Below are positions 7,342-23,849 of a stretch of DNA of 64,000 bases, in pieces. The notes under the pieces are model-generated. The model was not told the DNA's origin, ran no database searches, and worked only from the letters and a program-made list of their open reading frames with translations. Each line of letters starts with the position of its first letter. Within the stretch, counting starts at the first letter, position 1. Both the position numbers and the translations under genes were made by a program. The stretch is from Gammaproteobacteria bacterium (GTDB lineage Bacteria > Pseudomonadota > Gammaproteobacteria > Ga0077536): positions 2,272,001 through 2,336,000 of the forward strand of contig CAXXLL010000003.1 in assembly GCA_963662545.2 (NCBI GenBank), given 5' to 3'.

Positions 7342-7608
7342 TTATTCCGATGAACGCAACAGCGCGGTAATGTCCGCCAAGCTCTCTATTGCCAACATGG
7401 TGTCGGTGTCCAGCGGCCGCCCCAGGTACTGTTCAAGCGCCAGGATCAAATTCATGTGCGCCAGACTGTCCCATCGCTCGGTACGCCCGATAGCGGCGTC
7501 GCTTTCCAGTTCGTCGACGTTCAAGTGGAGGGCGTTTGCCAGGAGCTGACGGGCCGTAACGGCGTTCTCCGCATCTGGATTCATTGCACTTCCAGCAGGA
7601 AAACTCAT
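7342..7608 (-). CDS. Acyl carrier protein
   Basis: WDSLAHMNLILALE phosphopantetheine-site motif; ATG overlaps the GNAT stop codon. Confidence 0.85.
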   Translation of the reverse strand: MSFPAGSAMNPDAENAVTARQLLANALHLNVDELESDAAIGRTERWDSLAHMNLILALEQYLGRPLDTDTMLAIESLADITALLRSSE

Positions 7609-8171
7609 TGATCCTGCGCCGCTATCCACTCCTCGCGCAGTAAACCGAAATTCAACAGGTCGCGTCGGTTACCGTCGGGCCCCACTGCGTGCTGGCGCAA
7701 CACACCTTCGCAGGTGAAACCCTGCGCCTTGTAGTTGAAGACCGAAGCAAAGTTGCGACCGTCGACCTGGCCGTGAACCTTGAATACCCTGAGATCCTCG
7801 AACAGAAACCGTAGGACCCGGGCGCGCACCTCCAATACCACGCGCCGCCCCCAGTAGGCCTTGTTGCCGATCACCGTGTTGGTTTTAGCGCAGCCCGCGG
7901 ACTCGAGAAAGATGGCGATAAAGCCGATCGGTAACGCTTCTTCTCCGGGGAATATGCCGAGGTGGAACCTCTGCCGGTTGTCGAAGTTACCGATATGGCG
8001 TAGCGCCTCACGCCTGCCCCAATGGCGCGGCTTCTGTCCTAGGCCGTCCTGAACTTCCGCATCGTTCCACCAACTGACATAAGTATCGGTGGCATCCGCC
8101 GCCGTCAGAGACCGTAATCGATAATTCTCGGTTTCCAATTGCAGAATCTGACCCGGCTTCCATTGGCTCAC
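7605..8171 (-). CDS. GNAT N-acyltransferase (RimJ/RimL-like)
   Basis: IGNKAYWGR, N..S...YKAQGFTCEGVLRQH and GLLREEW motifs. Confidence 0.85.
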   Translation of the reverse strand: MSQWKPGQILQLETENYRLRSLTAADATDTYVSWWNDAEVQDGLGQKPRHWGRREALRHIGNFDNRQRFHLGIFPGEEALPIGFIAIFLESAGCAKTNTVIGNKAYWGRRVVLEVRARVLRFLFEDLRVFKVHGQVDGRNFASVFNYKAQGFTCEGVLRQHAVGPDGNRRDLLNFGLLREEWIAAQDQ

Positions 8172-9637
8172 TTCTTTTCGCCCCGCAGGCACATTTCGCG
8201 CACGGTATCACGGTTGATCTTACCGCGATCCGTTTTCGGGAGCTCATCCACAATGAACCAGCGTTCGGGAACACATTCGCGGCGAATGTGCTCGATACAC
8301 CAGCGCCTGAGATCCTCTGCCGAAAGCTCGACTTGATCGTCCAATTTAACGGCCACCGCAACTACTTCACCCGCAATTTCATCCGGAAGCCCGAACGCAC
8401 AGGCTTCCAGCACGCCGTCGTGACGTTCCAACAACAGATCGATCTCTTCCGGCGATACTTTCATGCCGCCGCGATTGATCTCATGCTTTAGACGGCCGGT
8501 CAGACGAATAAAACCCTCATGATCGATCCTGCCGATATCACCCGTGCTGAACCAGCCGTCGCGCATGACCGCCGCAGTCAAGTCCGGCCGCCGGAAATAG
8601 CCGTTCATCAATGCCGGCGGCCGCAGCAGCAATTCACCCTCTCCACTCGACATAATCTTCCCATCGGGCGTGCGGATCGCCGCATCACCACCCCACATCG
8701 CGCCGACCAGGCCATCCTCAGGCACCCGCTCGCAGGCCGAGCTGCCCGCGATCCAATTGGCGGTTTCGGTAATCCCGTACATATTGCGAACATCCCGTGT
8801 ACCTGACCATTCGATAATCGCGCGGATCAGTTCCTTTGACACCGGGGCCGAGCCGACGTTGATCTGACACAGGCTGTTACGCGTCGGTGGCGGCGACATT
8901 TTCAGTGCGATCCTCCAAAACGACGGCACCGAACTCATAAAGGTAATTTCGTTCTCGTCGACCGTCGTACCCAATGCCGCGGCAGCGCGTACCCCTCCGC
9001 CTGGAGCGAGATACAGGTCCGCCTCCGCGAACAGGGGGGTCAGGCAATTGCCGATCAGTCCGTGGCCGAAATGGGTCGGCAAAACGCAGAGGCTTCGACC
9101 TAGGGTTTCATGAGCGATGTAACGGTGGTTGTAATCGATGCGAGCGCGCAGTGATCCGAAGTCATGGACGACGCCCTTGGGGTCGCCGGTGGTTCCTGAG
9201 GTAAACAGAATCAGTGCGGGATCGCCAGCACGGCAATTCAAGATCAATGGCGATTCGCGATCATCGCCTGGCAGCGCCAGGCCCGTTATCAGCCGGACGT
9301 TGCGGGAAAGCCGTGCTTGCAGCACGCGCTCACCCAATATGAGAGCGACCGGTTCCGTGAACGCCACGACGTTTGTCAGCTCGGAGTCGGTCAACGCGGG
9401 ATTCACGCATGCGGCGCAAGCGCCCAGCGACCACACCGCGAATAAATCGGCAAAGAACTCGGGCGTGCCCCCGTGAGCGATGATGACGCGGCTGCCGGGG
9501 CCGGCACCCGCTTCCGAGAAAAGCGCCCGACGCGCCTCGACGGCACCGCAGATCCCGCGTCCCGTCCACACCTTGTTGCGAACCAGGTCGTGGATCGACG
9601 CCAGCTCGCTCAGATCGAATTCGCTGTCGTTCAACAC
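8168..9637 (-). CDS. Class I adenylate-forming enzyme (acyl-CoA/ACP ligase)
   Basis: FTSGTTGDPKG, YGITET, TGDIG, GRLK...NRGG and LPKTDRGK motifs. Confidence 0.93.
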   Translation of the reverse strand: MLNDSEFDLSELASIHDLVRNKVWTGRGICGAVEARRALFSEAGAGPGSRVIIAHGGTPEFFADLFAVWSLGACAACVNPALTDSELTNVVAFTEPVALILGERVLQARLSRNVRLITGLALPGDDRESPLILNCRAGDPALILFTSGTTGDPKGVVHDFGSLRARIDYNHRYIAHETLGRSLCVLPTHFGHGLIGNCLTPLFAEADLYLAPGGGVRAAAALGTTVDENEITFMSSVPSFWRIALKMSPPPTRNSLCQINVGSAPVSKELIRAIIEWSGTRDVRNMYGITETANWIAGSSACERVPEDGLVGAMWGGDAAIRTPDGKIMSSGEGELLLRPPALMNGYFRRPDLTAAVMRDGWFSTGDIGRIDHEGFIRLTGRLKHEINRGGMKVSPEEIDLLLERHDGVLEACAFGLPDEIAGEVVAVAVKLDDQVELSAEDLRRWCIEHIRRECVPERWFIVDELPKTDRGKINRDTVREMCLRGEKK

Positions 9638-9968
9638 TTCATTGCCTCAACGGCGACCAATGCTCGGGGCCGTTTCGATACACCGTTAAGCGGAGTTCTC
9701 ACCGCCAAGCCGAATGCCCGACTCAGCGAGTACAACCTGATGGCCGCGCAAACTCAAGCCGAATAGACCCTGGATTCCGTTCGAATCAGCAGGTTGCCCG
9801 AGATCATCGTCAAGCTACGCGTGACTATGCACTCGTTTCACGGATTGAGCCCTTTTATACTGCCCGTGCGCGCCGCTCTATACCGCCGGCACCTTCCGGA
9901 GGACGAAGCGAGGGCCGCGATGAGATCGTGCGAGTCGGCGCGCCTGCGGATTTCACTATCACGCGGAC

Positions 9969-10907
9969 GTGAAAGGAGGATCCCCAGTGATGGTATCTAG
10001 TGACCGGACAACGAGCAAAATGGCGAGGCCCAGCGTAGGCATTGCCTTCATTGTTCGAGAAAAGTTCGGCTGGGCGCTGGCAGCCTTGAGACGAATCTAT
10101 CAATTGGTGGATACGCCTTTCACGCTCTACTTCGTCGATTGCGGATACCCGATCATCGTACGCAGGGAGATCGATGCATTTCTGGCGGGCCGGACGAACA
10201 AAGTTCACATCGCGGCCGAGCGTTTTCTGTACCCTAATGAATCGCTGAATCTGATCATTCCGCGGTTGCAGGAAGATTACCTGTGCATTATTCAGAACGA
10301 TGTACTCATCGAGCCCGGCTACATGAGCGCGATGCTTGCCACTTTCGACAAGTATGCTTGCGACATGGTGTGGCCGATGACCTTCGAGCTGCAAGGCGGC
10401 ATGCGCAAACCCCATCGCGATGAATTCACTGATACGCGAATCCGAGAAGTCGACGGCAGGCTGTTGGTCCAGGTACGCGAACCCCCACCGGCGGTGCCAC
10501 CCCCACCGGTTCGCCGGATCCAGCATTTCGAACTACATACCCTGATGCTGACGACTCGCGCGGCCAATCTCGTCTGGCCTTTCCCCGCGATCAATTCCCG
10601 TGAGCACATCGACCTTGCGGTGCACGCGTTTCGGCGCGGGATGACCGTGTACGCGAACGAAGACGCACGCGCGAGCTATGTGCTTCCACCCATCCGGGAT
10701 TACGATCAGGCGTTTTTCCGATTCCGGTGGGATTTACCGGTCGCCAAGGGCTCGCATGTGTGCGTTGCGCGTCGGTGGAATATCAATCCTTTTCCGGGTT
10801 CCTTGTACTTCGTGAAGCAGCATAATGGCTATGCGGCGCCGGACAGGGTGTTGCACGATCGACCGGAGGCCTGTGAACCAGACATATACGCACCGGAATC
10901 AGTGTGA
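9969..10907 (+). CDS. Glycosyltransferase family 2-like protein
   Basis: LYFVDCG, IIQNDV and EHIDL GT-A-like motifs; start uncertain. Confidence 0.7.
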   Translation: MKGGSPVMVSSDRTTSKMARPSVGIAFIVREKFGWALAALRRIYQLVDTPFTLYFVDCGYPIIVRREIDAFLAGRTNKVHIAAERFLYPNESLNLIIPRLQEDYLCIIQNDVLIEPGYMSAMLATFDKYACDMVWPMTFELQGGMRKPHRDEFTDTRIREVDGRLLVQVREPPPAVPPPPVRRIQHFELHTLMLTTRAANLVWPFPAINSREHIDLAVHAFRRGMTVYANEDARASYVLPPIRDYDQAFFRFRWDLPVAKGSHVCVARRWNINPFPGSLYFVKQHNGYAAPDRVLHDRPEACEPDIYAPESV

Positions 10908-11000
10908 TCACAAAAGCGGAAACCCGCTGTTGAAGTTATGGCTCGCCGGTCCTGAACTCCACTTTGGCCACGTCTTGTTCCAAAGAGAAGTGAAGAGATT

Positions 11001-12215
11001 TCAAGTCGAGTTCGTCCCGTCATTACTTGGCAACAAAGAGGTAATTGTTTCCAGGATGGAGTCCGTCAGCGTTTCTCCTCTAAACCCGCGATAAGAAGCG
11101 GCGAATTTTCGCGCCGACGCCTTATAAGTTTCCATATTGCACAGCATGTCCAGCTTCAACTCCATGCTCTTTGGTTGGCGTCTGGGCGCCGACAGGCCGG
11201 CGCCCAGACGTTCTACGTTTCGAGCTACCAGACTTTGTTCTGCGTGTAAGGGCAACAGCAGGAGTGGTATCCCGGAAAGCAGTAACTGAGTCGTAGCGCC
11301 GTGGGTCGCATTACAGATGGCAACGTCGGCAGTCCGACCTACCGCGTCCATGTCAAGCGGCCGCTGGACGAACCGCAAAGACTCCGAGGCGTATTGCCGC
11401 TCGATGTCCGGCGGAATCTTGTCACCGAAAATCAAGGTGGGATGCCTCTTGCGGTTCAGGGTGGCCAACAACATCGGCAGCGTACTGAACGGTTTCAGAT
11501 AGGCGAAAACCCCTGGCCCCGGGCATGCCGGCCATTTCGGTTCGTCTCCGGGCGGTGATTTCAGAATTCCTACGTACTTGGCGTTCGGTCGTTCAGGGTA
11601 ATGATCCATCTCGGGCAGCGTGCGTAGAAGTTTCTCATCCGCGTCAAGCAACTCTCCAAATCGCGTCAGCCCTCTGAGCTCATTGAGCTCCAGCGCCTCG
11701 TTGATGGTGCGAAGTACATTGTCTTCAAAGGCCAGCAGTTCGCTCTCGTCCTGCTGTGGGTCCTCTTCGGATTGCAGACACGGGATGGGACTAACATCCG
11801 GAGGAAGGTGAAAACCGGTGCCGATCGCAATACGTCGTGCCCGGCTGCCCCTGGCTGCCAACATGGCCGTCGGACTGTAATCGAACACCAGTAAATCGGG
11901 GTCGATCAAAGCGTAAAGATTCTTCCAGGCGGCAATCATGCTGGCCAAGCGACCTGCATCGTCATATCCGTTGTTATGCAGGATCTTGGCGTAGGTGTTA
12001 ATCGGCATGATGACATTGACGTGGCGCGGCAGGACCATCGGAGCCTGGTACCACTTCGTTTTAAAGCCTCCGAACTGGTCGTGGGCCTTGTGCAGCGACC
12101 TCAGAGCAAAACTGACCTGGTGACCCTGATCCTCGAGCTGCGATATCAGTTCGATATAGGGGGTTGTGTGTCCGGTGCCCTGACCGAGTTCCCAGGTGAA
12201 CAGTATTTTTGCCAA
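11001..12215 (-). CDS. GT-B fold glycosyltransferase (GT1/GT28-like)
   Basis: N-terminal WELGQGTGH; C-terminal ICNATHGATTQLLLSGIPLLLLPLHAEQ. Confidence 0.85.
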   Translation of the reverse strand: MAKILFTWELGQGTGHTTPYIELISQLEDQGHQVSFALRSLHKAHDQFGGFKTKWYQAPMVLPRHVNVIMPINTYAKILHNNGYDDAGRLASMIAAWKNLYALIDPDLLVFDYSPTAMLAARGSRARRIAIGTGFHLPPDVSPIPCLQSEEDPQQDESELLAFEDNVLRTINEALELNELRGLTRFGELLDADEKLLRTLPEMDHYPERPNAKYVGILKSPPGDEPKWPACPGPGVFAYLKPFSTLPMLLATLNRKRHPTLIFGDKIPPDIERQYASESLRFVQRPLDMDAVGRTADVAICNATHGATTQLLLSGIPLLLLPLHAEQSLVARNVERLGAGLSAPRRQPKSMELKLDMLCNMETYKASARKFAASYRGFRGETLTDSILETITSLLPSNDGTNST

Positions 12216-12219
12216 GCCC

Positions 12220-13596
12220 TTACTCCACAGCCATTGAGTCCGCAACCCATTTTGAGAACGCCTCATCGAGTTGCCGGGCAGCCGCTTCCCATGATTCATA
12301 TTCGGTTTGGCGAAAGATCCTCATCGATGGGTACCACGGGGTCGTATCCGCCCCGAAGGCACCCCAGCGCCAATCCGAATAATGGATCAACATTAACCAG
12401 ACCGGCACGCCGAGCGCACCTGCCTGGTGGGCCGCCGCAGTGTCGATCGTAATGATCAAGTCCAGCTCTTTCATCAGCGCGCCGGAATCATGAAAATCAT
12501 GGATTCGCGATGATAGATCGGTGATCAGCCAGTCCACTGCCAGCGCCCGCATCTGTTTTTTTTCATCGCCCAGTTGCAGGCTATAAAAAGAAACCTTGCG
12601 ATGGCGCAGTAACGGCGCGTAATACGAGAGAGGAATGGAACGATCCGGCATCGGCTTGCCCGCCCAGACCAGGCCTATTTTGAGCTGCGTCTCCCTGCGC
12701 ATTTCCAGCCCCGGTCTTTCTAGCGATGCGTCGACATCCAGGTAACTGGTGATGCGGACGTCCTCCACACTGTAGTTGAGAATCGCAGGGATGCTGGTCA
12801 CTAATTGACAGTAATCGTAATCCGGCACGGGATCTTTGTACTCAATCAACTCGATGCCCCCTCCGAGGGACCGGAATAGGCGCATGAGCTCATGCGGTGT
12901 CTGCAGAATGACTCGCGCACCCATTTCAATGAGTTTCGGCACAAAACGACTGAACTGGATGACATCACCAAAGCGTTGCTCGTAGGCGAGAAAAATCGTC
13001 TTACCCTGCAGCGGTTGACCGGTCCACTTTTCGCCGATCAATTCCGGAAACGTGGTCGTCGGATGGTGCACGCGTGCCTCGTAGTCTTCCCACGCATTCT
13101 GGTAATCCCCCAGCGTCAACCGAGCCACCGCCCGCAGCCATTGGCTGATCGCCTTGATGTCGTCCGCGTCCTCTTCGCCCGCGAGTATCGTGTCGAAATA
13201 TTCCAGGGCCTGCCTGCTTTCGTTCATTCGAAGCAGTTGCTCGCCCTTATTGAACAAGGCGTAGATATTATCTGGCTCCAGCGTCAGCGCCTTGTCGAAT
13301 GCTTCCATGCTTTCGGTCCTTCTCCCCATGTTCCTGAGACACACGCCCAGTGTGGAGTAAATACTGGCGTTATCGGCTTGGAGCGCGGCCGCTCTTTGCA
13401 ACGCGACTACCGCCGCCTCCTTGCGATCGATTTCATTTAGGAGAACGCCCGCTTTGTAATAGGCGAGCCAGTGCCGGGGGGCGTTTAGGGTAAGCCGAAT
13501 GTAGGCATCGATGGCCTGGGGGTATTGCTTGGCCTTGCGCAGGGCCTCGGCCTGTTCGAATAATTTCTCCAGTTCGGCGGTATGACTTGCGGCCAT
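12220..13596 (-). CDS. TPR-containing glycosyltransferase (GT9-like C-terminus)
   Basis: N-terminal TPRs; YEAR, EQRFGDVIQFSRF, IGLVWAG and LDLIITIDTAAAHQAGALG..W motifs. Confidence 0.88.
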   Translation of the reverse strand: MAASHTAELEKLFEQAEALRKAKQYPQAIDAYIRLTLNAPRHWLAYYKAGVLLNEIDRKEAAVVALQRAAALQADNASIYSTLGVCLRNMGRRTESMEAFDKALTLEPDNIYALFNKGEQLLRMNESRQALEYFDTILAGEEDADDIKAISQWLRAVARLTLGDYQNAWEDYEARVHHPTTTFPELIGEKWTGQPLQGKTIFLAYEQRFGDVIQFSRFVPKLIEMGARVILQTPHELMRLFRSLGGGIELIEYKDPVPDYDYCQLVTSIPAILNYSVEDVRITSYLDVDASLERPGLEMRRETQLKIGLVWAGKPMPDRSIPLSYYAPLLRHRKVSFYSLQLGDEKKQMRALAVDWLITDLSSRIHDFHDSGALMKELDLIITIDTAAAHQAGALGVPVWLMLIHYSDWRWGAFGADTTPWYPSMRIFRQTEYESWEAAARQLDEAFSKWVADSMAVE

Positions 13597-13620
13597 GAGG
13601 GTGCGCCCAGAAAATTCCTT

Positions 13621-14382
13621 CTAGAAAATGAAATACCGGCCGTAGGGCGTACCCTGAAAATGATCCTGTAATTCGGGATAGTTGACAATTTCTTCGTTCG
13701 GACGAAGGCGTGCAATCTTACGCAGATGTGGTTTCGCCTCGATCGCGTGGTCGACCCCCAGAAAAGAAAATACTCTAACCATGGTCGTAGTGAAATTCTC
13801 GCTAATATCCGTGTATTCAACATCGAGTATACGGTGTGTTTGCTCGATATCTTCGAATGCTGACAGAGTTTTTTCGAATCGCTGAAACAGGGATTTGCAT
13901 TCGTGCGGAGGCAAAACGAAGCGAGGACTCTTTTCGATGTTTTCCGGGCTATGCCAGCGGCGGGTGATCCTTGCTCGTACGTAAGAACACACGATCTCGA
14001 GCAGGTTTTCTCTCTGGGTTCGAACGATCTTGATCTCGCTACGGTCGCTGATATAACGCCAGACATCGCTGTTCGGGCCATTCAGAGCCTGGTCGTAGAG
14101 GAGCTTGAATCCAACTGCTTTAGCCGGCCTCTCGACGGCGTAAAACTCTTCGATGTAGGCGCGACCGCTTTCGTTTTGCTCACACGGACGCACAGGCTGC
14201 GTCGGCGCATTTGCGATCTTCCATCCCGCTCCCAAGGTAAGCCGTGCCGCCTCATTTTTCCGGACTCCGATCACGTCGTTGAATAATTCACCGTAAAACC
14301 GTACTTCCGGGTGCGTTATGAGCGATCCGCCGATAACCGTCGTGCCCGAGCGGGCACACCCGCTCAGTATGAAATTAACCAT
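13621..14382 (-). CDS. Stand-alone sulfotransferase (Stf0-like)
   Basis: PAPS-binding ARSGTT, HP....GELF, GFKLLY and RENLL...S motifs. Confidence 0.85.
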   Translation of the reverse strand: MVNFILSGCARSGTTVIGGSLITHPEVRFYGELFNDVIGVRKNEAARLTLGAGWKIANAPTQPVRPCEQNESGRAYIEEFYAVERPAKAVGFKLLYDQALNGPNSDVWRYISDRSEIKIVRTQRENLLEIVCSYVRARITRRWHSPENIEKSPRFVLPPHECKSLFQRFEKTLSAFEDIEQTHRILDVEYTDISENFTTTMVRVFSFLGVDHAIEAKPHLRKIARLRPNEEIVNYPELQDHFQGTPYGRYFIF

Positions 14383-14436
14383 GGGCGAAAAGTCCGTGAC
14401 TCCTGCTCGCGCGTATACGCGTCCTTGTCATCGCTT

Positions 14437-15915: not shown

Positions 15916-16739
15916 AGCTTGGCCAGCTCCGGCCAGTCCCGCACCCAGCAACACGAATGATCAAATGCTTCGATGCGCTTGACCTGCGGCTGGTGAGATG
16001 CGGGAAACCGCGCGCGATAGCTGTTGGCCGTTGCCTCGGTAACGTTTTTATCCTTACCGCCGATCAGGTGAAGCTGTGGAAGATCAAGCAGTGACGATGC
16101 GAAATCGGCGGGGTTCAGCGAATCGTGCAGCGGTGTGATTTGATGCTCGCGGGTCCAGCTTTGATGATCGAGCATGCCGGCCACCGTAACCAGTTGAATC
16201 ACATCGTCTCGCCGCGCCGCCAGCAACGCGGCAACGGCACCCCCTCCGGAGTAACCGACCAGTCGAAGCTTATCTGCGCCAAACATTGCCATGAGCGCAT
16301 CCAGCGCCTGGCTGCTCGCCTCGACGACATCGCCGGAATATCTTCCGGCCGTCCAAACGTGCTTTTCGCACCCGTTCCGATCGGTATCCGCTATGAACTG
16401 GCACGGGCGGGCGAGGTAGGCCACGGCGCCATAGGGGTGTCGCATCGCAAGCTCTAAGCCGACCGGGTTGATCGGGGTCGGGTCACCGGAGGAGCGGCTC
16501 CCACTGATCCAGGCCAAGCCGTCACCCTCGATATAGACGGTCAGCGTTTTCGCGCGCTGCGGTGCCTGAGGCAAAAAACCTGTGAGGATGAACGGTTCGG
16601 TCTTTAGGCGCACTGATTTCCACTCAGCGGTATGGGCAAGATTCAAGGCGTGGTCGTGGCGCGACTGGCTGGATGGTACGAGGTGCGTACAGCTTGCGAC
16701 AGCGGTTATAAACAATGCAGACAGCGTTCCCCGCAACAT
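15903..16739 (-). CDS. Lipoprotein alpha/beta hydrolase
   Basis: Lipobox VAS-C; YIEGDG; nucleophile GYSGG; D and H candidates (GGKD, DHSCCW). Confidence 0.85.
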   Translation of the reverse strand: MLRGTLSALFITAVASCTHLVPSSQSRHDHALNLAHTAEWKSVRLKTEPFILTGFLPQAPQRAKTLTVYIEGDGLAWISGSRSSGDPTPINPVGLELAMRHPYGAVAYLARPCQFIADTDRNGCEKHVWTAGRYSGDVVEASSQALDALMAMFGADKLRLVGYSGGGAVAALLAARRDDVIQLVTVAGMLDHQSWTREHQITPLHDSLNPADFASSLLDLPQLHLIGGKDKNVTEATANSYRARFPASHQPQVKRIEAFDHSCCWVRDWPELAKLWLP

Positions 16740-16755
16740 CGCAATGACCGGCGCG

Positions 16756-18906
16756 CTAGTCGACCGGCGCAAGCTCGCCCAGAGCATCGATCAAGGGTCC
16801 AAGAAACTTTTCATAACATCGCCAGCGCTCTATCGATGAGGTATAGATCGGTTCGCGCACCTGCGTAACGCTGGCGGTCCGGATAGCGCGCTTGGTCTTA
16901 TGGGGTTCCAGGCAGGCATCGTCCCATTCCAGGCCGCAGTAATCGATCAGTCGCCGTGTCGGTGTTTCATTGTCGGAAACCAGCTCCTCGTAGTGCAGGT
17001 CCAGAAATGCACCCTCGGGGAGAACGCTGCGCCAGTGGTCCATGACCTCAACGTACTTTCGGTAATATGAACCCAGTTCCACCAGATCGTAGGTATGATC
17101 CTGGCCGCTGTGAAACAAGCGATTGAAACAAGACAGGCAGGTATCCAGCGGATTGCGCCGCATATGGATGATCCGCGCATTCGGTAACATCAGGTGAATC
17201 AAGCCAAGCAGCAGGAAGTTCGCCGGCATCTTGTCAGTAATCCTGACCGCATCCGGCGCTCTTTGTCGGAGGCCTTTGATGTAAGACTCGCCCCAGGCCG
17301 CGAGATGTTCGTGATTCAAATCCTTGAAATTGTCGCCAAAGGACACGTCGACCGAATCTGCGCTGGTTGACATCGATCCGATGTTCAGCAGGTCATAAAG
17401 CTCGCCGGCACCGTACACCGCGGGATGGCTGGCGATGATCTGCTCGGTCAGGGTGGTGCCCGAACGCGGCATGCCGAGTATGAAGATGGGGACATCGGAC
17501 GGGTTGTCGTGACCGCTCAGCACCTCGATCCGGGACCGATTCATTTGCGCCATGACATTGTCGAACAAGCGCATCTTTTCTTCATGGTCGTAGCCGTTGC
17601 TCGCACGCTTCGAGCGACAGCCTTGCGCATAATGCTCGAAGGCCTTGTCGTAATCCTTTATATCCTCGTAACACTTTCCGAGCGCGAAGTGCAGGAAGGT
17701 CGTTTTGTCTTCGGGCAGATGCGCAGCGTGCTTCATTTCTTCTACCAGGGCCGCCAGATTATCGTCGCCGGTACGAGTTTTTCTGACCTGGGTGATATAG
17801 AAACGTGACGCCAACGGTTCGCTGCTGACCGCGAGTGAATGGACGAAGAGGTCTTCGGCCTCCGCGAGCCTGCCCGCCTCCATGTAGAGAATGCCCTTGC
17901 CGAGCAGCGCGCTACCGAGCGCCGGGTCGAGCGCCAACGCCTTGTCGAAGCTCTCCACGGACAGGTCGAAGTAACCCATGCGGCTGTGGACCTGCCCCAG
18001 CGTGCTGTGGACTTCGGCCTTTTCCGGAGCGATACGTACGGCGGTCGTGGCCGCCTGCACCGCCTTATCCAGTTCGTTCTTTTCCTGAAAGACGCGCGCC
18101 AGGCCTTGATGAGCCTCGGCGTAATCGGGCCGGAGTTCTATCGCGCGCAGGAACATCGGCTCTGCGAGGTCGAACTGTTCGAGCGCATTTCGGGCGAAGC
18201 CCAGGTTGCAAAGCGCGTCACTGTAATTCGAATTGAGCTGCAGCGCCGCCTCCAGTATGGGTATGGCTTCCGCCGCGCGCTCATCCTGCACCAGCACGGT
18301 ACCGAGATTATTCAGTGGCTCGGTGTAATTCGGATCGGCGACGATGGCCTGCCGGTAATAGTCGATTGCAGCTTTCAGGTCCTTGCGTTCACGACAGATA
18401 CTGCCCAGGTTGTTCAGCGCCGGGGCCAGATCGGGTTTGAGATCCAAGGCTCGCTTTTGGTGTATCTCGGCTGCATCGAAATCCTGCTTGTCGTAGTAGG
18501 CAATGCCCAGATTGCTATGCGCGCCGAAAGAATCAGGGGCCAGGGCGACCGCCCTTTCCCCGTGTTCGATCGCCTCATCCAGGCGGCCGCCTTGACGGCA
18601 CAGCTCGGTGTAGTTGACCAGAAACGGTACGTTCGTCCCGTCACCGGCGATGGCCCTACGGACGCAATCCAGAGCCGTGTCGATCTTGCCGACCTTGTGC
18701 GCGATGATACCCAGCAGGTGCAACGCGTGGGGCTGATTGGGGTGCTTGGCAAGGATTTGCCTGAGTGATACCTCGGCCTGTTGCAGTCGGCCCGCACCCT
18801 GATCACGGTTGGCCCGTTGCAGTGCCTCCGCCAAGCTCATCTGCCCGGGTTGCGTGTGCGCGACGAAGGGTTCTGTGGCCACTGCTTTTCTTGGTTTTTT
18901 CGGCAT
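16756..18906 (-). CDS. TPR-containing sulfotransferase
   Basis: About 10 TPRs, then PIFILGMPRSGTTLTEQI, TDKMPAN, RRNPLD..LS and TASVTQVR. Confidence 0.93.
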   Translation of the reverse strand: MPKKPRKAVATEPFVAHTQPGQMSLAEALQRANRDQGAGRLQQAEVSLRQILAKHPNQPHALHLLGIIAHKVGKIDTALDCVRRAIAGDGTNVPFLVNYTELCRQGGRLDEAIEHGERAVALAPDSFGAHSNLGIAYYDKQDFDAAEIHQKRALDLKPDLAPALNNLGSICRERKDLKAAIDYYRQAIVADPNYTEPLNNLGTVLVQDERAAEAIPILEAALQLNSNYSDALCNLGFARNALEQFDLAEPMFLRAIELRPDYAEAHQGLARVFQEKNELDKAVQAATTAVRIAPEKAEVHSTLGQVHSRMGYFDLSVESFDKALALDPALGSALLGKGILYMEAGRLAEAEDLFVHSLAVSSEPLASRFYITQVRKTRTGDDNLAALVEEMKHAAHLPEDKTTFLHFALGKCYEDIKDYDKAFEHYAQGCRSKRASNGYDHEEKMRLFDNVMAQMNRSRIEVLSGHDNPSDVPIFILGMPRSGTTLTEQIIASHPAVYGAGELYDLLNIGSMSTSADSVDVSFGDNFKDLNHEHLAAWGESYIKGLRQRAPDAVRITDKMPANFLLLGLIHLMLPNARIIHMRRNPLDTCLSCFNRLFHSGQDHTYDLVELGSYYRKYVEVMDHWRSVLPEGAFLDLHYEELVSDNETPTRRLIDYCGLEWDDACLEPHKTKRAIRTASVTQVREPIYTSSIERWRCYEKFLGPLIDALGELAPVD

Positions 18907-18936
18907 GGTTCTGCGTCGTCGGCACTCGATTTGAAA

Positions 18937-20614
18937 TCACGAACCGTAGGGCTTGCTATGGTCGCGATAGGCTTCGACCATCGCGAGCAGGGGCGCCAGA
19001 TGCGTTTCGCCAAAACGTTTCCAGCGGGCGAGCGAGCTCGTGTAGATCGGTTGGCGAACCTGAGCCACGCTGGCCGTTTTGACCTTCCTTTCGCTCTTGT
19101 AGAATTCCAGGCAGGCATCGTCCCAGGGCAGACCGATATATTCCAGCATGCGCCGGGCCTCCTTCCCGGTGTCCGCCACGACGTCCTCGTAGCACACATC
19201 GAGGATGGTGCCTGCGGGCAGGACCTCGTGCCAGTGCCGCATCAGCCTGATATAGCGAACGTAAAAACGGCCGATGCATTCGAGATCGTAGGCGAAGCCC
19301 ATGGTCTCGTTGAACAGTTTGGCATAGCAGGAGAAGCACGAATCCATCGGATCGCGCATCGAATGGATGATCCGCGAGTGCGGGAACATCAGGTAGATCA
19401 TACCGATATAGAAAAAGTTGGCGGGGCTCTTGTCGGTGATGTAGCGGTGGTGCGGCGCATGCTGCCAGACGCGATCGAGGTACTCACGGGCCAGGACTTC
19501 GATATCGTCCATGCTCAGCGCAGGAAGCGGGTCGGTAAAGGGACTCCCCGGCGCGGCCCCGGGGGCGCCCATGATCACTTCATTCAGGTCACCCAGTTCG
19601 CCGGCGCCATGCACTGCAGGGTGACTGGCAAGGATCTGCTCGATCAGGGTCGTGCCGGAACGCGGCATGCCGAGGATAAAGATCGGCGTGCGTTCATCTG
19701 CACCTGCTTGTCGCCGTTCGTCAAAGAAACGGGTGTCGAACAAGGCCATGACACGTTCGGCCCGATCGTCGGCCTGCGCTTCATTCTGAGGAATCAGCGC
19801 GTGCTGCTTGCGGTTGCCTTCGACATAGGCTGCGAAAGCACGGTCGTACTGGCCGATGTCCTCGCGCGCCTTGCCCAGCGCGAAATAGTAACGAATGCCC
19901 GTTTCTGAATCCGCCTCCGGTGGATTGGAACTCATCGATTCGAGTGCCGTCAGGTGCGGATCGTTGGGCTCATAGGTCTTGAGCGACGACAAATTGTAGT
20001 GCGCGCTGACGAAGTCGGGCCGGGCTGCGATGGCGGCTTCGAAACAGACAACGGCCTCGTCGAGGCGACCGTCAGCACTGTAAACGGCGCCCAGGTTATT
20101 CTGTGCTTCGGCGTTGGCGGCGACCGTAGGCAGCTTCCGAGCCGGCTTTGTCATCCAGATGCTCGAGAACGGCACCGAGGTTGTTCCACGCCTCCGCGTG
20201 CTCGGGCTTAAGTTCGAGAGCGCGCTCGCAGGATGTTTTGGCCTGCGCGTAATCCTTATTGTCGACGCAAGCGAGACCTAGATTGTAGTGCGCCGTCGCG
20301 TCGTCCGGTTTGAGCTCCGTGGCCAAGCGGCCGGCGGTAATGGCTCGTTCCAGTTGGCCGAGCCGGCGAAACAATTCGCCGATGTTGCGGTGATAGATGG
20401 ATACCTTGCCATCGATTTCGATCGCGCGGGCGATCATATCTGCGGCCAGCGGTAAGTTGTCCGCGCGTAGAGCCATCAGCCCGAGTGCATGATAGGCGGG
20501 ATGAAAGTCGGGCGCCTGGGCCACGATCTGACGGTAGCGCGCTTCTGCTTCCGCCGGCTTTCCGGCGAAGCGCAGCCGATCGGCCGCTGCCATCGCCTGG
20601 GCAGGTGTCATCAT
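18937..20614 (-). pseudogene. Second TPR-containing sulfotransferase, frameshifted near 20120
   Basis: TPR ORF 20096-20614 and TPR-sulfotransferase ORF 18937-20175 overlap in different frames; a TPR is shortened at the junction; GMPRSGTT is intact. Confidence 0.8.
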
Positions 20615-20698
20615 GCGGAACAGGCCTTCAACATTCTCCAAGCCGGGGGCAGATGCTACCCAAATGCAGGGGCGATGTAGAGTTGGCTCGCACGGTCG

Positions 20699-20741
20699 GC
20701 TAGCCCGCCTATTGCATGAAGCGTGCAATAGGCGGGCTAGC
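20699..20741. repeat. Perfect 18-bp inverted repeat (REP-like or regulatory hairpin)
   Basis: gctagcccgcctattgca-N7-tgcaataggcgggctagc. Confidence 0.75.
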
Positions 20742-20832
20742 GGTCCAGCGCGGCGGAATATCGAACAAAATGATTGCGTTAGTTTCGTCGTTCATGCGAC
20801 TATTGCGGGTGGTATTGTGGTGTAAAAGTACA

Positions 20833-20874
20833 AAACAACAGACGGTTCCAGACGATTCCAGTAGTCTGTTGTTT
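20833..20874. promoter_or_regulatory. AT-rich inverted repeat in the divergent intergenic region
   Basis: aaacaacagac-N20-gtctgttgttt, extendable with one indel. Confidence 0.45.
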
Positions 20875-20954
20875 ATACTGAGAAAAATACCACTGACAGA
20901 ACGTGCCGACGGACCAGAACCGAAGAGGGCCGCGGTGTGCGCCAGTCTTAGCAG

Positions 20955-23849
20955 GGTAGTACTTACGGTATTTACCTTTACAGCGCTTCCGTCGACGGCG
21001 GCATCATCAACAGTGGCACGATCATGTCTGGTAGCGAAGGCATTAGAATACGAAGCGATTCGACGATCGACGGCGGGATGACTAACAGTGGCACGATCAC
21101 GGCTAGTGGAGTAGGCATTAGGCTAAGCGATTCGACGATCAACGGCGGAATGAGCAACAGTGGCACGATCACGGCTGGTAGCGAAGGCATTCGTATAAAG
21201 CGATCGACGATCAGCGGCGGGATGACCAATAGTGGCACGATTACGGCTACTAAAGAAGGCATTTTTATAACCAAATTGACGCTCAACGGTGACTTTACCA
21301 ATAGTGGCACGATCGCGGCTGGTTCCACCGGCATAAGACTAAAAAATTCGACGATCAATGGTGACTTCACCAACAGCGGCACCATCTTCGCGGACGGCGA
21401 AGGCATATACCTCTACGGTACGACCGTCGACGGGTCGTTCATCACCGGCAGCTTGATCGACGCGACCGATGATGCGGTCCATATCCACGACAGCACCATC
21501 GGCGGCGACTTGATCAACAACGGCACAATAATCTCTGATAGCGCCGGCTTCGACATCGATTCATCGTCCCTCATCAAAGGCTCTGTCGTCAACAGCGGCT
21601 TGATAATGGCGGACGAGGAAGGGTTCGATATAAATACTGCGACCATCGAAGGCTCGATCACCAACAGCGGCACAATTATCTCAGATGATGACGACGGCAT
21701 CGAAATCGATGATTCGACGATCAAAGGCTCGCTCGTCAATAGCGGCTTGATAATGGCGGACGACGAAGGGTTCGATATAGATGATACGACCATCGAAGGC
21801 TCGATCACCAACAGCGGCACAATAATCTCCACTGGAGAGGAAGGTATCGATATCGGTTCTTCGACCATCGAAGGCTCGCTCACCAACAGCGGCTTGATAA
21901 GGTCGACCGAAGAAGGTATCGATATCGATGATTCGACCATTAAAGGCTCGCTCATCAACAGCGGCACAATAGACGCCACTAAAGATGACGGCATCACAAT
22001 CAGATCATCGACCATCGAAGGTTCGCTTACCAACAGCGGAACGATCACGGGTACCAAGATTGGCCTCCTTGTGACCAAATCGGAGATCAGCGGCGGGATT
22101 ATCAACAGCGGTACCATCGGTGCCACGATGAGCGAAGCGCTGGTCGTGGACGATATGGATGAGGTCACCACAATCACCAATACCGGCCTGCTCGATGGCG
22201 CTGTCCGGTTCGATGACAATATCCTGAATCTGGCAGGCACCTCAGGACGCATTACCGGCATCGTCACCGGCACCGCAGGTTCGATCGTCAATGTCAGGGG
22301 CACTTTTACGACCGAAGCCGACTTCAATGTCGACAATTTCATCGTCGCGCCCACCGGCTGGCTCCAAGTGGCCAATAACATCACGCCGATGAGCGGGACC
22401 GTCAGCAACCTCGGCGTCCTGGCGGCGAAACCAGGAACCATGGGCACCATCACGGGCGGGTATACGCAGACCGGGGCGGGCGCCCTCGGCGCAGTCCTCA
22501 ATAACTCCAACTACAGCCAGTTGATGGTAACCGGCACGGCCGATCTTTCGGCCAATGACGCGGTCACCGTGTTCGTCAATGCCCTGCTGGTTCCCGGGCA
22601 GGAGTTCGACGACATATTGACGGCGGGCACGCTGACGTCTGGCACCAGCCTGACCACCACCGACGACAGTGTGCTGTGGAAGTTTACCGCGCTGCCGGAT
22701 GGCAACACGGTGGATCTCGTTGCCGCTCGCGATGCGTTCTTGGCGAATCTCGCGAGTCCTTACGCAACCGAAGTCGGCCAGGCGCTCGATGCGCTGCTGG
22801 ATTCCGGCCAGTTCAGTGCGGAAATGCGGACCTTATTGTCCCAGATCGCCGCACTGGACACGGCGGCTGAAGTGACCAACGCGGTCGACCAGCTGGTCTC
22901 GGTACTCGTCGGCCAGGGTGCGTTCGCTGCAGCACAGGCCGTGAACCAGATATCCGCTATCGTGGGTAGTCAGATCGACGGCCAGCGCGGTCTTTCCGCG
23001 GGCGACCCAATGTTCAGGGAAGGGCACTGGTGGATCAAACCGTTCGGAGGATTCGGGGACCACGATGTGCGCAAGGGCGTGCCCGGATTCGATCTGTTCA
23101 GCTACGGCATCGCCGCAGGCGCCGACGTCAAGCCGAACGATAATCTGTTCGTCGGGGCCGCGTTCGCGTGGTCGGAAGCGGAGATCGAAGCCGATACGAT
23201 CAGTCAGAACGAGCTCGACATCCAGACCTATCAGCTCGCCCTCTATGGATCCTACGATCTGGACGCGCGCAACTACATCGATGCGCATGCCATCGTCGGC
23301 TGGAACGACAACGAAAGCCGACGCGACGTGACGATCGGGGCATTTAAGAGCACCGCCAGCGCGGACTACGACAGCTTCTTTACGCGCATCTATGCGGGTT
23401 TGGGGCGCAAGTACGCGGTCAACGATCAGTTCACCGTGAGTCCGGTGATCAACATCCGCTACACCTATATCGACGAAGACGGCTACACCGAGACCGGCGC
23501 CCCGATAGCCCTTGCCGTCGGGAGCAACGACACAGATTCCCTGGTCCTCGGATTGGACGGCGTCGGGCATTACACCTTCGGGCCGGGTAACGCGTACTCC
23601 ATTACCGCACGGGCCGGTGTGGGCTACGATGCGATCACGGACCGTACGCTGGTGTCCTCCAACTTCGTGGCCGGCGGCGGGACTTTCGCGACACGGGATG
23701 CAGAGCCCGACGAGTTCGTGTACCACGCCAGCTTCGGCCTGAACTCGGCCGCCGGCACGACGACATCCGTCAGCATCGAATACGAGTTCGAAGGACGGCA
23801 GGATTTCGACGTGCACGGGTTCTCCGCGACGGTGCGATGGCGGTTCTAG
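20955..23849 (+). CDS. Type Va autotransporter with repetitive beta-helical passenger; no N-terminal signal peptide visible
   Basis: About 16 repeats of ~24-25 aa (GI.I..STI.G.LTNSGTI); C-terminal beta-barrel ending VRWRF; in-frame TAG at 20949; first ATG at 21024 lies inside the repeats. Confidence 0.9.
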   Translation, partial: GSTYGIYLYSASVDGGIINSGTIMSGSEGIRIRSDSTIDGGMTNSGTITASGVGIRLSDSTINGGMSNSGTITAGSEGIRIKRSTISGGMTNSGTITATKEGIFITKLTLNGDFTNSGTIAAGSTGIRLKNSTINGDFTNSGTIFADGEGIYLYGTTVDGSFITGSLIDATDDAVHIHDSTIGGDLINNGTIISDSAGFDIDSSSLIKGSVVNSGLIMADEEGFDINTATIEGSITNSGTIISDDDDGIEIDDSTIKGSLVNSGLIMADDEGFDIDDTTIEGSITNSGTIISTGEEGIDIGSSTIEGSLTNSGLIRSTEEGIDIDDSTIKGSLINSGTIDATKDDGITIRSSTIEGSLTNSGTITGTKIGLLVTKSEISGGIINSGTIGATMSEALVVDDMDEVTTITNTGLLDGAVRFDDNILNLAGTSGRITGIVTGTAGSIVNVRGTFTTEADFNVDNFIVAPTGWLQVANNITPMSGTVSNLGVLAAKPGTMGTITGGYTQTGAGALGAVLNNSNYSQLMVTGTADLSANDAVTVFVNALLVPGQEFDDILTAGTLTSGTSLTTTDDSVLWKFTALPDGNTVDLVAARDAFLANLASPYATEVGQALDALLDSGQFSAEMRTLLSQIAALDTAAEVTNAVDQLVSVLVGQGAFAAAQAVNQISAIVGSQIDGQRGLSAGDPMFREGHWWIKPFGGFGDHDVRKGVPGFDLFSYGIAAGADVKPNDNLFVGAAFAWSEAEIEADTISQNELDIQTYQLALYGSYDLDARNYIDAHAIVGWNDNESRRDVTIGAFKSTASADYDSFFTRIYAGLGRKYAVNDQFTVSPVINIRYTYIDEDGYTETGAPIALAVGSNDTDSLVLGLDGVGHYTFGPGNAYSITARAGVGYDAITDRTLVSSNFVAGGGTFATRDAEPDEFVYHASFGLNSAAGTTTSVSIEYEFEGRQDFDVHGFSATVRWRF

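Follow-up and report, generated by a model that had tools for sequence, protein, structure and literature searches.

An autotransporter gene linked to putative glycosylating and sulfating enzymes on a gammaproteobacterial accessory island

Does a compact run of sulfotransferase and glycosyltransferase genes that diverges from an autotransporter (AT) gene serve to decorate that autotransporter? We addressed this question in a 64,000-nucleotide stretch of a Gammaproteobacteria bacterium genome (the window; Table 1), for which the initial annotation had proposed a sulfated and possibly acylated glycan on the AT passenger. With modest confidence, and on the basis of gene linkage and folds, we consider it most likely that positions 11001 to 23849 are an instance of a conserved module, an autotransporter together with its decorating enzymes, carried on an island, and that this is a cytoplasmic, TPR-targeted system glycosylating and sulfating the AT passenger.

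Table 1. Features of the island, with window coordinates and the evidence for each.
Feature	Position	Strand	Evidence
Accessory island, 19.4 kb	4541..23933		Missing from sister species
DUF1501 + DUF1800 pair, island cargo	4553..7224	-	PF07394 E 1.2e-26, PF08811 E 2.1e-113
AMP-ligase, GNAT, carrier-protein trio, island cargo	7342..9637	-	AMP-binding PF00501 E 5e-47 (8168-9637), GNAT PF13302 E 2e-11 (7605-8192), PP-binding PF00550 E 7e-5 (7342-7629)
GT2-like gene, island cargo	9969..10907	+	ESM Atlas features (language-model look-alike search), 0.99 to PF00535 clusters
GT-B glycosyltransferase, GT1/MGT type, 432 aa as listed	11001..12299	-	Sub-threshold only: PF06722 (EryCIII-like) 23.2 vs 31.7 bits, TIGR01426 39.9 vs 260 bits
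TPR-glycosyltransferase TPRGT458, TPR + GT9-fold domain	12220..13596	-	Pfam, TPR only; GT9 fold from modelled C-terminal domain
Small sulfotransferase ST253	13621..14382	-	PF13469 (Sulfotransfer_3) 32.7 bits vs cut-off 27
TPR-glycosyltransferase TPRGT505, GT9-like	14437..15954	-	TPR + PF01075 (Glyco_transf_9) 25 bits vs cut-off 22
Exported lipoprotein alpha/beta-hydrolase, 294 aa	15903..16787	-	Weak PF00561, 23.8 vs 25.8 bits; lipobox-like N-terminus + GYSGG nucleophile elbow
TPR-sulfotransferase TPR-ST#2, 716 aa	16756..18906	-	Many TPRs + PF13469 E 4.4e-45
TPR-sulfotransferase TPR-ST#1	18937..20614	-	TPR domains + PF13469 (Sulfotransfer_3) E 2.8e-48 (18937-20175)
Perfect hairpin, 19-bp stem	20698..20743		AT-rich spacer between two divergent genes; read from sequence
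AT, 5'-truncated: repeat passenger + beta-barrel	20952..23849	+	PF03797 E 3.9e-48 (21024-23849)

The minus-strand operon (20614 to 11001) runs, in order, through two TPR-sulfotransferases (TPR-STs), the hydrolase, TPRGT505, ST253, TPRGT458 and the GT1-like GT-B, all located by Pfam and folds where the initial annotation had placed them, with the hydrolase and GT-B matches below cut-off and TPR-ST#1 split. The split, near position 20120, reflects a 17-nt deletion in this assembly: in all four public runs, 20120 is followed by 17 additional letters and TPR-ST#1 is intact (frame offset 553 + 17 = 570, divisible by 3), and the orthologue in genome G193 is likewise intact (567 aa, 64% identical). 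TPR-ST#2 orthologues adjoin an AT in G006, G009 and G193 (47-55% identity) and form a clade (support 99/97). The AT-linked TPR-STs fall into two orthogroups (support 100/100 and 99/97) on the same side of the tree, a clustering that was equally tight in 0 of 500 label shuffles, and the neighbours of this genome's TPR-ST paralogue on contig C2 are unrelated. ST253 has orthologues in loci L021, L024, L026 and L028, its phosphosulfate-binding loop being kept in four orthologues, and at least one sulfotransferase is found in all seven AT-bearing or orthologous loci. The lipobox and GYSGG motif of the hydrolase are kept in its L024 and L026 orthologues, and a further orthologue (55% identical) lies within the G193 module.

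With respect to the glycosyltransferases, the AF2 model of TPRGT458 (pLDDT 95.5) is closest over its whole chain to SPY/OGT structures (8dti, 5a01, 2jlb; Foldseek E 1e-11 to 1e-9), and its residues 193-456 match GT9 structures (Z 16.7-17.6), among them TibC (4rap; Z 16.7, rmsd 3.1, 245 aligned). According to this model, TPRGT458 is built like protein O-glycosyltransferases, with TPRs and GT-B, and its catalytic domain has a GT9 fold, as in TibC. Orthologues of TPRGT458 occur in seven other distinct loci (45-75% identity) and in 3 of 81 genomes of the order. Those of TPRGT505 (45-50% identity) and of the GT1-like GT-B (52-62% identity), whose real start is probably downstream of the listed one, are found in G009, L026 and L028; TPRGT505 is fused with a small sulfotransferase in L028 and in two database clusters (P0122 and P0123).

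The AT itself is incomplete. Its frame begins right behind a stop (20949-20951) and inside a repeat unit, the first ATG follows at 21024, and the gene has neither a proper start nor a signal peptide, whereas intact AT orthologues do have a signal peptide. The missing N-terminal piece was not found in a search across the rest of the genome, and no second AT of the same type was detected there (one match to the AT protein query, only three PF03797 hits). The loss of start and signal peptide means that the product probably cannot be displayed in this species. The initial annotation, which had described an AT with a Ser/Thr/Asn-rich repeat passenger diverging from the enzyme run, was right about the divergence and the Ser/Thr-rich repeats, and the truncation amends its account of the gene: the passenger (S 13.5%, T 13.5%, N 5.2%, G 15.7%) holds 15 Ser/Thr-rich repeat units spaced 24-25 residues apart. 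The 80 nt of the hairpin spacer fold at -54.4 kcal/mol.

Comparison with other genomes supports, from gene order and homology, a linkage of AT and enzymes that extends beyond this genome, in agreement with the earlier suggestion that the enzymes belong with the neighbouring AT. TPRGT458 is found in eight distinct loci besides duplicates, six of them long enough for judging AT adjacency, and an AT adjoins it in five of these six (the window, G006, G009, L024 and L026), the G009 AT being cut N-terminally by the contig end; no AT is visible within 17 kb in L028. The loci range from 42 to 64% GC and vary in gene order and strand, with AT identities of 31-41% and enzyme identities of 45-75%. Furthermore, a search with the AT passenger matched two of the 400 genomes sampled from the class, namely this genome (G000) and G193, where an AT with ESPR signal and barrel diverges from a TPR-ST (567 aa), a TPR-ST (720 aa) and a hydrolase in the same order as in the window, and no TPR-GT9 is present anywhere in the complete genome searched. 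Within the order, the AT is found in G000 and G006, and G009 and G002 hold an N-terminal and a C-terminal fragment of it, respectively.

The same does not hold for the wider enzyme families. A TPR-ST homologue is present in 63 of the 400 sampled genomes, 39 of which have no PF03797 hit, and among the matches listed only G000 and G193 carry a TPR-ST and an AT within 10 kb (these tallies take in the unpublished genomes G375 and G220); likewise, an AT is missing from all eight distant TPR-GT9 loci. Most members of the broad TPR-ST and TPR-GT9 families have no AT link, and some lie by flagellins (L019, L043) or giant adhesins (Big_9/cadherin, L017). A usual lack of a type V neighbour, which the initial annotation held to speak against its proposal, is therefore seen in the broad families and not in the orthologous subgroup.

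The island is missing from the sister species G002, in whose contig C11 the match to window positions 897-4540 is followed directly by that to 23934-27359 (93-94% nucleotide identity), and it is near-identical in contigs of all four public runs. A region rich in IS21 elements adjoins it; sharing a mobile island can be enough to hold genes together. The DUF1501/DUF1800 pair lies inside the segment that G002 lacks and, like the AMP-ligase/GNAT/ACP trio and the GT2-like gene, is an island neighbour rather than a demonstrated part of the module. The suggested acylation of the glycan loses its footing here, since the trio and the GT2-like gene occur in none of five other loci compared and a plus-strand gene stands between the trio and the operon. 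The GT2 gene, said to follow the run, is this plus-strand gene; it has no Pfam or NCBIfam match, and its GT2 likeness is upheld only by the ESM Atlas features. Across the ORFs of 4553-23849, Pfam gave no match to a transporter, wzx/wzy or nucleotide-sugar family, as had been claimed from the letters. Elsewhere the genome encodes LPS-type GT9 genes and APS kinase, which is needed for PAPS synthesis.

We propose the following sequence of events. No signal peptides were found on the enzymes, as modification in the cytoplasm prior to export would require, and they would thus work there. Their TPR arrays may bind the repetitive Ser/Thr-rich passenger ahead of Sec export, as FlmG does with flagellins (TibC/AAH act on AIDA-type passengers), and both GT9-fold domains would attach a sugar to Ser/Thr, the usual donor for this fold being ADP-heptose. 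The GT1-like GT-B could lengthen the glycan or supply a second sugar, which the small sulfotransferase, fused to TPRGT505 in other genomes, would sulfate with PAPS. The two TPR-STs would act on the passenger or its glycan; since G193 keeps an AT and two TPR-STs without any TPR-GT9, they may, judging by this gene content, modify the protein directly rather than the glycan. The lipoprotein hydrolase would work after export. An adhesin gene that travels with protein-docking sugar and sulfate enzymes in several unrelated bacteria points to an undescribed form of bacterial surface-protein decoration.

Three other readings of the locus have to be weighed against this one. The enzymes might tailor a non-protein product (a glycolipid, an LPS or capsule component, a secondary metabolite), with the AT merely riding the same mobile block. 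The GT9 fold is that of LPS heptosyltransferases, and WaaF and WaaC match the TPRGT458 catalytic domain as well as TibC does; the GT-B is of the EryCIII/MGT (macrolide-GT) type, the best solved sequence relatives of the TPR-ST domain are polyketide-pathway sulfotransferases (4gox, E 4.7e-11), and the window also holds the AMP-ligase/ACP/GNAT trio. In L028, which shows no AT over 17 kb, the enzymes stand alongside a carbamoyltransferase, a GMC oxidoreductase and a haem-oxygenase-like enzyme, a mix that would equally suit the tailoring of small molecules or glycolipids; haem-oxygenase-like or GMC enzymes recur in L024 and L026. We nevertheless regard this explanation as unlikely, given that four of the enzymes bear TPR arrays in an overall build like that of OGT, SPY and FlmG, the locus has no exporter, flippase, lipid-carrier or nucleotide-sugar gene, the AT remains adjacent despite rearrangements (five of six loci, plus G193), and flagellins and adhesins adjoin distant paralogues. 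Less probable still is a protein target other than the AT, whether an unlinked substrate or the FG-GAP/ASPIC-UnbV protein that adjoins the module in both G006 and G009; in G377, a row of seven tandem TPR-STs is flanked by an FG-GAP protein and an SBBP repeat protein, and the enzymes of the window are intact despite the truncated AT. FG-GAP/ASPIC proteins are, however, absent from the window, L024, L026, L028 and G193 loci, and, enzymes apart, the AT is the one gene common to the window, G006, L024 and L026, recurring in G009 and G193.

A more serious possibility, though one to which we still give the lesser credence, is that whatever its ancestral function, the module in this genome is a decaying remnant, with the AT reduced to a pseudogene, the enzymes idle or newly orphaned, and nothing decorated. 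This would account for an AT that lacks start and signal peptide, with a truncated junction identical in the four public runs and in P0125, and is in line with the deletion in TPR-ST#1, a 1-nt deletion in TPRGT458 in one run at low depth, and the IS21-rich surroundings. Against it, the enzyme ORFs, TPR-ST#1 included, are whole in all four public runs, and the AT frame is open over 965 codons. Moreover, P0126, an AT from a relative with a 92%-identical TPRGT458, shares 67% identity overall with the window AT, with the barrel half much more conserved than the repeats and the frame unbroken, which is unlike the pattern expected of a dead gene.

The decoration system that we favour is uncharacterised and shares parts of its design with several known ones. 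Like TPST, it includes a sulfotransferase domain (TPR-ST#2) that matches TPST2 by sequence (E 4.3e-7, about 225 residues), and both would use PAPS, as is usual in the family; this domain is, however, fused to a TPR array and finds better PDB matches in the OLS and CurM sulfotransferases, and Tyr is neither frequent nor position-conserved in the repeats of the passenger (1.2-7.3% Tyr in the five ATs compared). As in OGT and SPINDLY (GT41), a TPR superhelix precedes the GT-B domain in TPRGT458, but whole-chain TM-scores are only 0.3-0.4 (rmsd >12 A), there is no GT41 Pfam match, and the catalytic domain fits GT9 enzymes (Z about 17) better than OGT (5a01; Z 13.3, rmsd 15.3). Enzymes of the HMW1C/NGT type are cytoplasmic GT41 N-glycosyltransferases that act on N-linked sequons of HMW1 and trimeric autotransporters; the resemblance lies in a type V adhesin glycosylated in the cytoplasm by a helical N-terminal domain plus GT-B enzyme, whereas those enzymes are not GT9 and work without sulfation, and the NSGT motif of the window passenger is not an N-X-S/T sequon. 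FlmG of Caulobacter, in the available part of PMC7591256, is a cytoplasmic TPR plus GT-B flagellin O-glycosyltransferase whose TPR domain binds its substrate, and no sulfotransferase partner is described in that part. The likeness, one of architecture, extends to the presumed targeting of a secreted repetitive surface protein before export, and flagellins adjoin a distant paralogue of the window TPR-glycosyltransferase in G037; the presumed substrate here is an AT rather than a flagellin, and the catalytic domain is GT9-fold. A further comparison is with AIDA-I/AAH and TibA/TibC, ATs that, according to the available part of PMC4358343, are heptosylated by an adjacent cytoplasmic heptosyltransferase of the BAHT family (TibC acting on TibA), and with which the window shares a repeat-rich type Va passenger, a dedicated neighbouring glycosyltransferase gene, a presumably cytoplasmic enzyme and a GT9-like catalytic domain that LPS heptosyltransferases fit equally. 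Unlike TibC/AAH, TPRGT458 has a TPR array in place of the N-terminal beta-barrel and only 2 Cys, so that the four-cysteine iron finger is absent, and unlike the AIDA-I/TibA systems, the window has two paralogous glycosyltransferases and a GT1-like GT-B, in a module that always or often also includes one to three sulfotransferases and an exported hydrolase.

The minus-strand enzymes that the initial annotation had listed between about 20614 and 11001 are recovered by Pfam, in a run whose intergenic gaps of -80 to +54 nt make it operon-like (see the table below). The hydrolase and its orthologues carry a lipobox and a GYSGG elbow, and no signal peptide is found in any transferase of the operon. 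For the gene beyond the run, only a language-model look-alike search points to GT2; neither Pfam nor NCBIfam gives a match, and a sequence search of the PDB with its product returned nothing useful.

Genes of the operon and its flanks, in window coordinates
Feature	Position	Strand	Evidence
TPR-ST#1 piece	20096-20728	-	TPRs only (Pfam)
TPR-ST#1 piece	18937-20175	-	TPR + PF13469, E 2.8e-48
TPR-ST#2	16756-18906	-	PF13469, E 4.4e-45
Alpha/beta-hydrolase	15903-16787	-	Weak Pfam match
TPRGT505 (TPR-glycosyltransferase)	14437-15954	-	TPR + GT9 match above cut-off
ST253 (small sulfotransferase)	13621-14382	-	PF13469, 32.7 bits vs cut-off 27
TPRGT458 (TPR-glycosyltransferase)	12220-13596	-	TPR by Pfam, without catalytic match
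EryCIII/MGT-like GT-B	11001-12299	-	Sub-threshold profile matches
Autotransporter (repeats + beta-domain)	21024-23849	+	PF03797, E 3.9e-48
GT2-like gene	9969-10907	+	Language-model look-alike search alone
AMP-ligase, GNAT, carrier protein (trio)	7342-9637, beyond the 9969-10907 gene	-	Pfam

Across orthologous loci, the autotransporter and these enzymes mostly stay together. Loci were collected with TPRGT458 from the same order (G006 and G009; 3 of 81 genomes of the order hold an orthologue), from species-representative genomes (L021 to L024) and from JGI metagenomes (L025 to L028); L025 is the same DNA as G009, and at 3.2 and 2.0 kb, respectively, L021 and L027 do not extend far enough for a judgement. 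An autotransporter adjoins the TPRGT458 orthologue in five of the six informative loci, namely the window, G006, G009, L024 and L026. It diverges from a TPR-sulfotransferase (TPR-ST) and TPRGT458 in G006, and in G009 its first ~60 codons, signal peptide included, diverge from a TPR-ST before the contig start cuts the gene. L024, from an Alcanivoracaceae MAG, has the order hydrolase, autotransporter, TPRGT458, ST253, contig end, while in L026 (GC 42%) TPRGT505 and the hydrolase diverge from the autotransporter, TPRGT458, ST253 and GT-B. The sixth locus, L028 (GC 45%), encodes both TPR-glycosyltransferases, GT-B and a TPRGT505-ST253 fusion, with no autotransporter in the 17 kb seen. The loci differ in gene order, strand and GC content, and the autotransporters are just 31 to 41% identical. 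All-versus-all comparison of six loci finds the TPR-glycosyltransferases, ST253, TPR-ST, autotransporter and GT-B (4 loci) as common families, with the hydrolase common to three loci and also present in the genome G193; none of the other loci has the trio, the GT2-like gene or DUF1800/DUF1501. Large FG-GAP/ASPIC-UnbV proteins adjoin the module in G006 and G009 (L016:27-2504 and L011:5349-8579), the G009 protein being fused to a permease-like N-terminus; the accessory block that holds the module in the window has no such gene.

With the passenger as the query, matches come from two genomes of the class out of 400 sampled evenly: the window's own and G193, a complete 2.9-Mb genome from another family. 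There the autotransporter diverges from a TPR-ST of 567 aa, a second of 720 aa and the hydrolase, ordered as in the window and set between housekeeping genes. No GT9 catalytic domain of this kind occurs in the complete G193 genome, all matches being to TPRs only. In a tree of the sulfotransferase halves, the six autotransporter-linked TPR-STs fall into a pair of orthogroups with support of 100/100 and 99/97. All six share one side of a branch that itself has weak support (68/61), and equally tight clustering arose in 0 of 500 label shuffles.

The neighbourhood survey thus upholds the proposed link for the orthologous loci and G193, but not for the broad TPR-ST and TPR-GT9 families, which are not specific to autotransporters. 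None of eight loci with distant TPR-GT9 paralogues (~27 to 35% identity) has a neighbouring autotransporter; one such paralogue lies beside two flagellins and fliD (L019, G037:C7) and another beside Big_9/cadherin giant adhesins (L017, G015:C42). TPR-ST homologues (E<=1e-60) occur in 63 of the 400 sampled genomes and PF03797 in 110, in tallies that take in the unpublished genomes G375 and G220; by cross-tabulation, 39 of the 63 have no autotransporter domain. Among the positions listed, which leave 87 autotransporter matches outside, only the window's genome and G193 place the two within 10 kb of each other. We read four of the next-best TPR-ST loci. In G362 (L043, G362:C3) the gene is part of a flagellin locus, with flgK/flgL on one side and fliC/fliD on the other; G377 (L041, G377:C3:134000-153999) has seven tandem TPR-STs in ~14 kb, set between genes for a beta-propeller repeat protein (SBBP/DUF7948) and for an FG-GAP protein; in G471 a GT9-like gene and a 2OG oxygenase accompany the TPR-ST; and G311 has two copies with uninformative neighbours. 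A third TPR-ST of the window's genome, on contig C2, has unrelated neighbours. This distribution fits TPR arrays as exchangeable targeting domains, with the autotransporter-directed enzymes as one sub-clade.

For the TPR-glycosyltransferase TPRGT458, an AlphaFold model from a 92-sequence alignment (pLDDT 95.5, pTM 0.91) supersedes an earlier one from 5 sequences (pLDDT 65, catalytic domain unusable). The model has ten helices forming a TPR array (residues 1-177), followed by a GT-B domain; with an N-terminal TPR array, a C-terminal GT-B domain and no signal peptide, the predicted build is that of the flagellin glycosyltransferase FlmG and of OGT. Whole-chain Foldseek searches rank the TPR-fused protein O-glycosyltransferases SPINDLY and OGT highest, at TM-scores of just 0.3 to 0.4. 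When residues 193-456 are aligned exhaustively to known structures (VIA-align), GT9 enzymes tie for the best match, with Z scores of 17.6 for 3tov, 17.4 for 1psw (WaaF), 16.9 for 2h1f (WaaC) and 16.7 for 4rap_A (TibC; rmsd 3.1, 245 aligned), and the catalytic domain scores higher on GT9 than on GT41 structures. Neither a GT41 nor a GT9 match is reported for TPRGT458 by Pfam, and its sequence profile finds only TPR proteins in the PDB; many of its homologues carry PF01075, as does TPRGT505 (25 bits versus a cut-off of 22, with 26.9 and 28 bits for the L028 orthologues). Ordinary LPS-type GT9 genes are also present in the genome.

Autotransporter heptosyltransferases of the TibC/AAH family move heptose from ADP-heptose to passenger Ser and are built with an N-terminal beta-barrel, a thumb made of a beta-hairpin, and a dodecameric ring. 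Their iron finger has four coordinating cysteines, according to PMC4358343. TPRGT458 was rejected as a member, as it has no N-terminal beta-barrel and its two cysteines (86 and 263) cannot form a four-cysteine iron finger; TPRGT505 has seven, scattered. A complex prediction of TPRGT458 with passenger residues 20-170 (92-row alignment) scored 0.00, which is evidence neither way.

The catalytic half of the TPR-STs is related by sequence to the OLS/CurM sulfotransferases (E 4.7e-11) and to TPST2 (E 4.3e-7). ST253 has no solved relative in a sequence search of the PDB and bears only a distant likeness to the Stf0-type carbohydrate sulfotransferases (NF047724, 26 bits versus a cut-off of 400), and its R-S/T-G-T-T phosphosulfate-binding loop is kept in four orthologues. 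It is fused behind TPRGT505 in L028 (12205-14445) and in the database clusters P0122 and P0123 (744 residues), which argues that it works on the product of that enzyme; the fusions span 744 to 746 aa in all. The genome has an APS kinase. Elsewhere in the genome, a Sulfotransfer_3 match beside two LPS-type GT9 heptosyltransferase genes (G000:C3:1744336-1747646, outside the window) may mark an LPS-core sulfation locus.

The Tyr that TPST and RaxST sulfate lies in acidic surroundings within a secreted protein. In the passenger repeats Tyr is infrequent and occupies no conserved position, and the G193 passenger contains 2.4% D and 0.7% E; for want of a conserved Tyr in the repeats, Tyr sulfation was not adopted as the main reading. 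Ser and Thr together make up 18 to 30% of the passenger. N-linked glycosylation was rejected, the recurrent NSGT motif being no N-X-S/T sequon.

The sister species G002 has a contig in which window position ~4540 is followed directly by ~23934, with 93 to 94% identity to either side, which makes 4541-23933 an accessory island. Besides the operon and the autotransporter, this island comprises DUF1501 and DUF1800, the trio and the GT2-like gene. No integrase is encoded inside these 19.4 kb, and the window has no tRNA gene. An imperfect direct repeat of ~28 nt, seen by eye at both ends (4514-4540 and 23914-23943; GCTGCCAG ... CGC(C)ACC), may be an insertion-site duplication; a repeat finder reported no such flanking repeat. 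No TPR-glycosyltransferase was found in G002 with the queries used, and a 52%-identical autotransporter is represented by its final 165 residues at one of the contig edges (G002:C88:6-503; L034/L035); with the upstream part unassembled, this fragment is uninformative. Window positions 29000-62000 form a second mobile region, with several IS21-type transposase/IstB pairs, of which two occur as near-identical copies (ORFs of 275 and 507 aa), a tyrosine integrase (32366-33580), a TonB-dependent receptor (46914-49556) and a Prim-Pol/D5 primase (58356-61031).

We compared window positions 4300-24100 with contigs from four public runs, each of a different study, and observe that the island is nearly identical in all four, with 0 to 13 differences per long contig. 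Apart from these four, some runs labelled sponge metagenome contain between one third and one half of the sampled words. In the window assembly, TPR-ST#1 has a frameshift near 20120, and each of the four runs carries 17 extra letters behind that position. The frame offset of 553 plus 17 gives 570, a multiple of three, so that TPR-ST#1 is whole in the four runs; merged, it would have ~564 residues, compared with 567 in the G193 orthologue. Since all four runs carry the 17 letters, their deletion is private to the window assembly, as either a mutation or an assembly error. A contig of one run, X8, lacks a single letter at 12556 within TPRGT458, which may be an assembly error (single contig, depth 5.7). 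Further joints in the run contigs have sides of only 20 to 38 letters and were taken for paralogues or other organisms.

The autotransporter has both its barrel and its repeats: PF03797, the C-terminal 12-stranded beta-barrel domain, is matched over positions 1-255 of 255, and the passenger has 15 Ser/Thr/Gly-rich units of 24 to 25 residues each, with the consensus I.I..STI.G..TNSGTI.A..EG. The passenger appears from its sequence to be of the repetitive beta-helix type, and the L026 orthologue matches Beta_helix and NosD. The start and the signal peptide, however, are absent. The frame opens in the middle of a repeat unit right after a stop at 20949-20951; no N-terminal Sec signal of the kind expected of type Va proteins follows from the first ATG (21024), and none was seen by eye in the read-through and upstream frames. 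Searching the genome by tblastn with three orthologous N-termini matched only the repeats of the same gene, no second autotransporter of this type occurs elsewhere in the genome, and the spacer 20615-20960 occurs once. All of the orthologues in G006, G009, L024, L026 and G193 begin with a signal peptide, that of G193 also matching ESPR (PF13018, E 4.6e-12). The run contigs bridge 20120-21669 without another indel, and the truncation is therefore real and shared. Within the AT-rich spacer between the TPR-ST#1 start and the truncated gene lies a perfect hairpin with a 19-bp stem (20698-20743), one arm of which matches 24 nt at just one other genomic site, on contig C2.

A working autotransporter requires a Sec signal, and for lack of an export signal the window's gene looks dead. 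Its open frame of 965 codons and two database proteins nevertheless argue against this. P0125, from another assembly, has first residues identical to those of the window's protein and one repeat unit fewer. P0126 as called also begins inside the repeats and is 67% identical to the window's protein overall, with a barrel half far more conserved than the repeats and no frame break; a pseudogene is not expected to stay open across such divergence. P0126 probably lies on the same 43,769-nt contig as P0002, a TPRGT458 that is 92% identical to the window's.

The module is, most likely, a cytoplasmic system that decorates the autotransporter passenger. Its folds, its fusions, the lack of signal peptides and the conserved linkage are observed, and each catalytic step is inferred: the TPR arrays would dock on the passenger repeats, the GT9-fold domains would glycosylate Ser/Thr and GT-B would extend the glycan, after which ST253 would sulfate a sugar and the TPR-STs either the glycan or the protein, with the lipoprotein hydrolase acting after export. 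Two observations speak against decoration of a protein: L028, in the part seen without an autotransporter, brings in a carbamoyltransferase along with a GMC oxidoreductase and a haem-oxygenase-like enzyme, and GT-B is of a small-molecule type. The complete genome of G193, which keeps the autotransporter with two TPR-STs and the hydrolase and has no TPR-GT9, suggests that the passenger may be sulfated directly, and makes this a live possibility. That the TPR-STs act on the passenger protein with no glycan involved, O-sulfating its Ser/Thr (or Tyr), we regard as rather unlikely; if true, direct sulfation would add a new post-translational modification to those of bacterial surface adhesins, and the TPR-ST family, sometimes flagellin-linked, would be a large unrecognised class of protein sulfotransferases whose TPRs select the target.

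The module is compact, numbering three or four genes in the G006 or G193 version, and could reveal if adhesins are sulfated by bacteria and if TPR arrays are interchangeable targeting devices for sugar and sulfate transferases. If they are, hundreds of "TPR repeat protein" annotations could be read as protein-modifying enzymes, and such genes were found in our survey beside flagellins, giant adhesins and autotransporters.

The module is thus real, conserved and uncharacterised, a variant of the adhesin glycosylation systems whose window copy has a truncated adhesin gene. Full-text literature searches returned no description of such a module and no paper in which a TPR-sulfotransferase is tied to an autotransporter or to the modification of proteins in bacteria. 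To our knowledge, glycosylation of an autotransporter by a neighbouring enzyme is limited to the AIDA-I/TibA heptosyltransferases and the HMW1C-like N-glycosyltransferases, and we know of no characterised case in which a bacterial surface protein or its glycan is sulfated. AIDA-I/AAH and TibA/TibC are the closest systems, with which the module has its logic and catalytic fold in common, whereas the accessory domains differ. The logic of TPR plus GT-B operates on flagellin in Caulobacter FlmG, where binding between the TPR domain and the substrate is described, by two-hybrid or pull-down, in PMC7591256. What is new here is the fusion of TPR and GT9, probably directed at an autotransporter, and, most of all, the constant presence of sulfotransferases.
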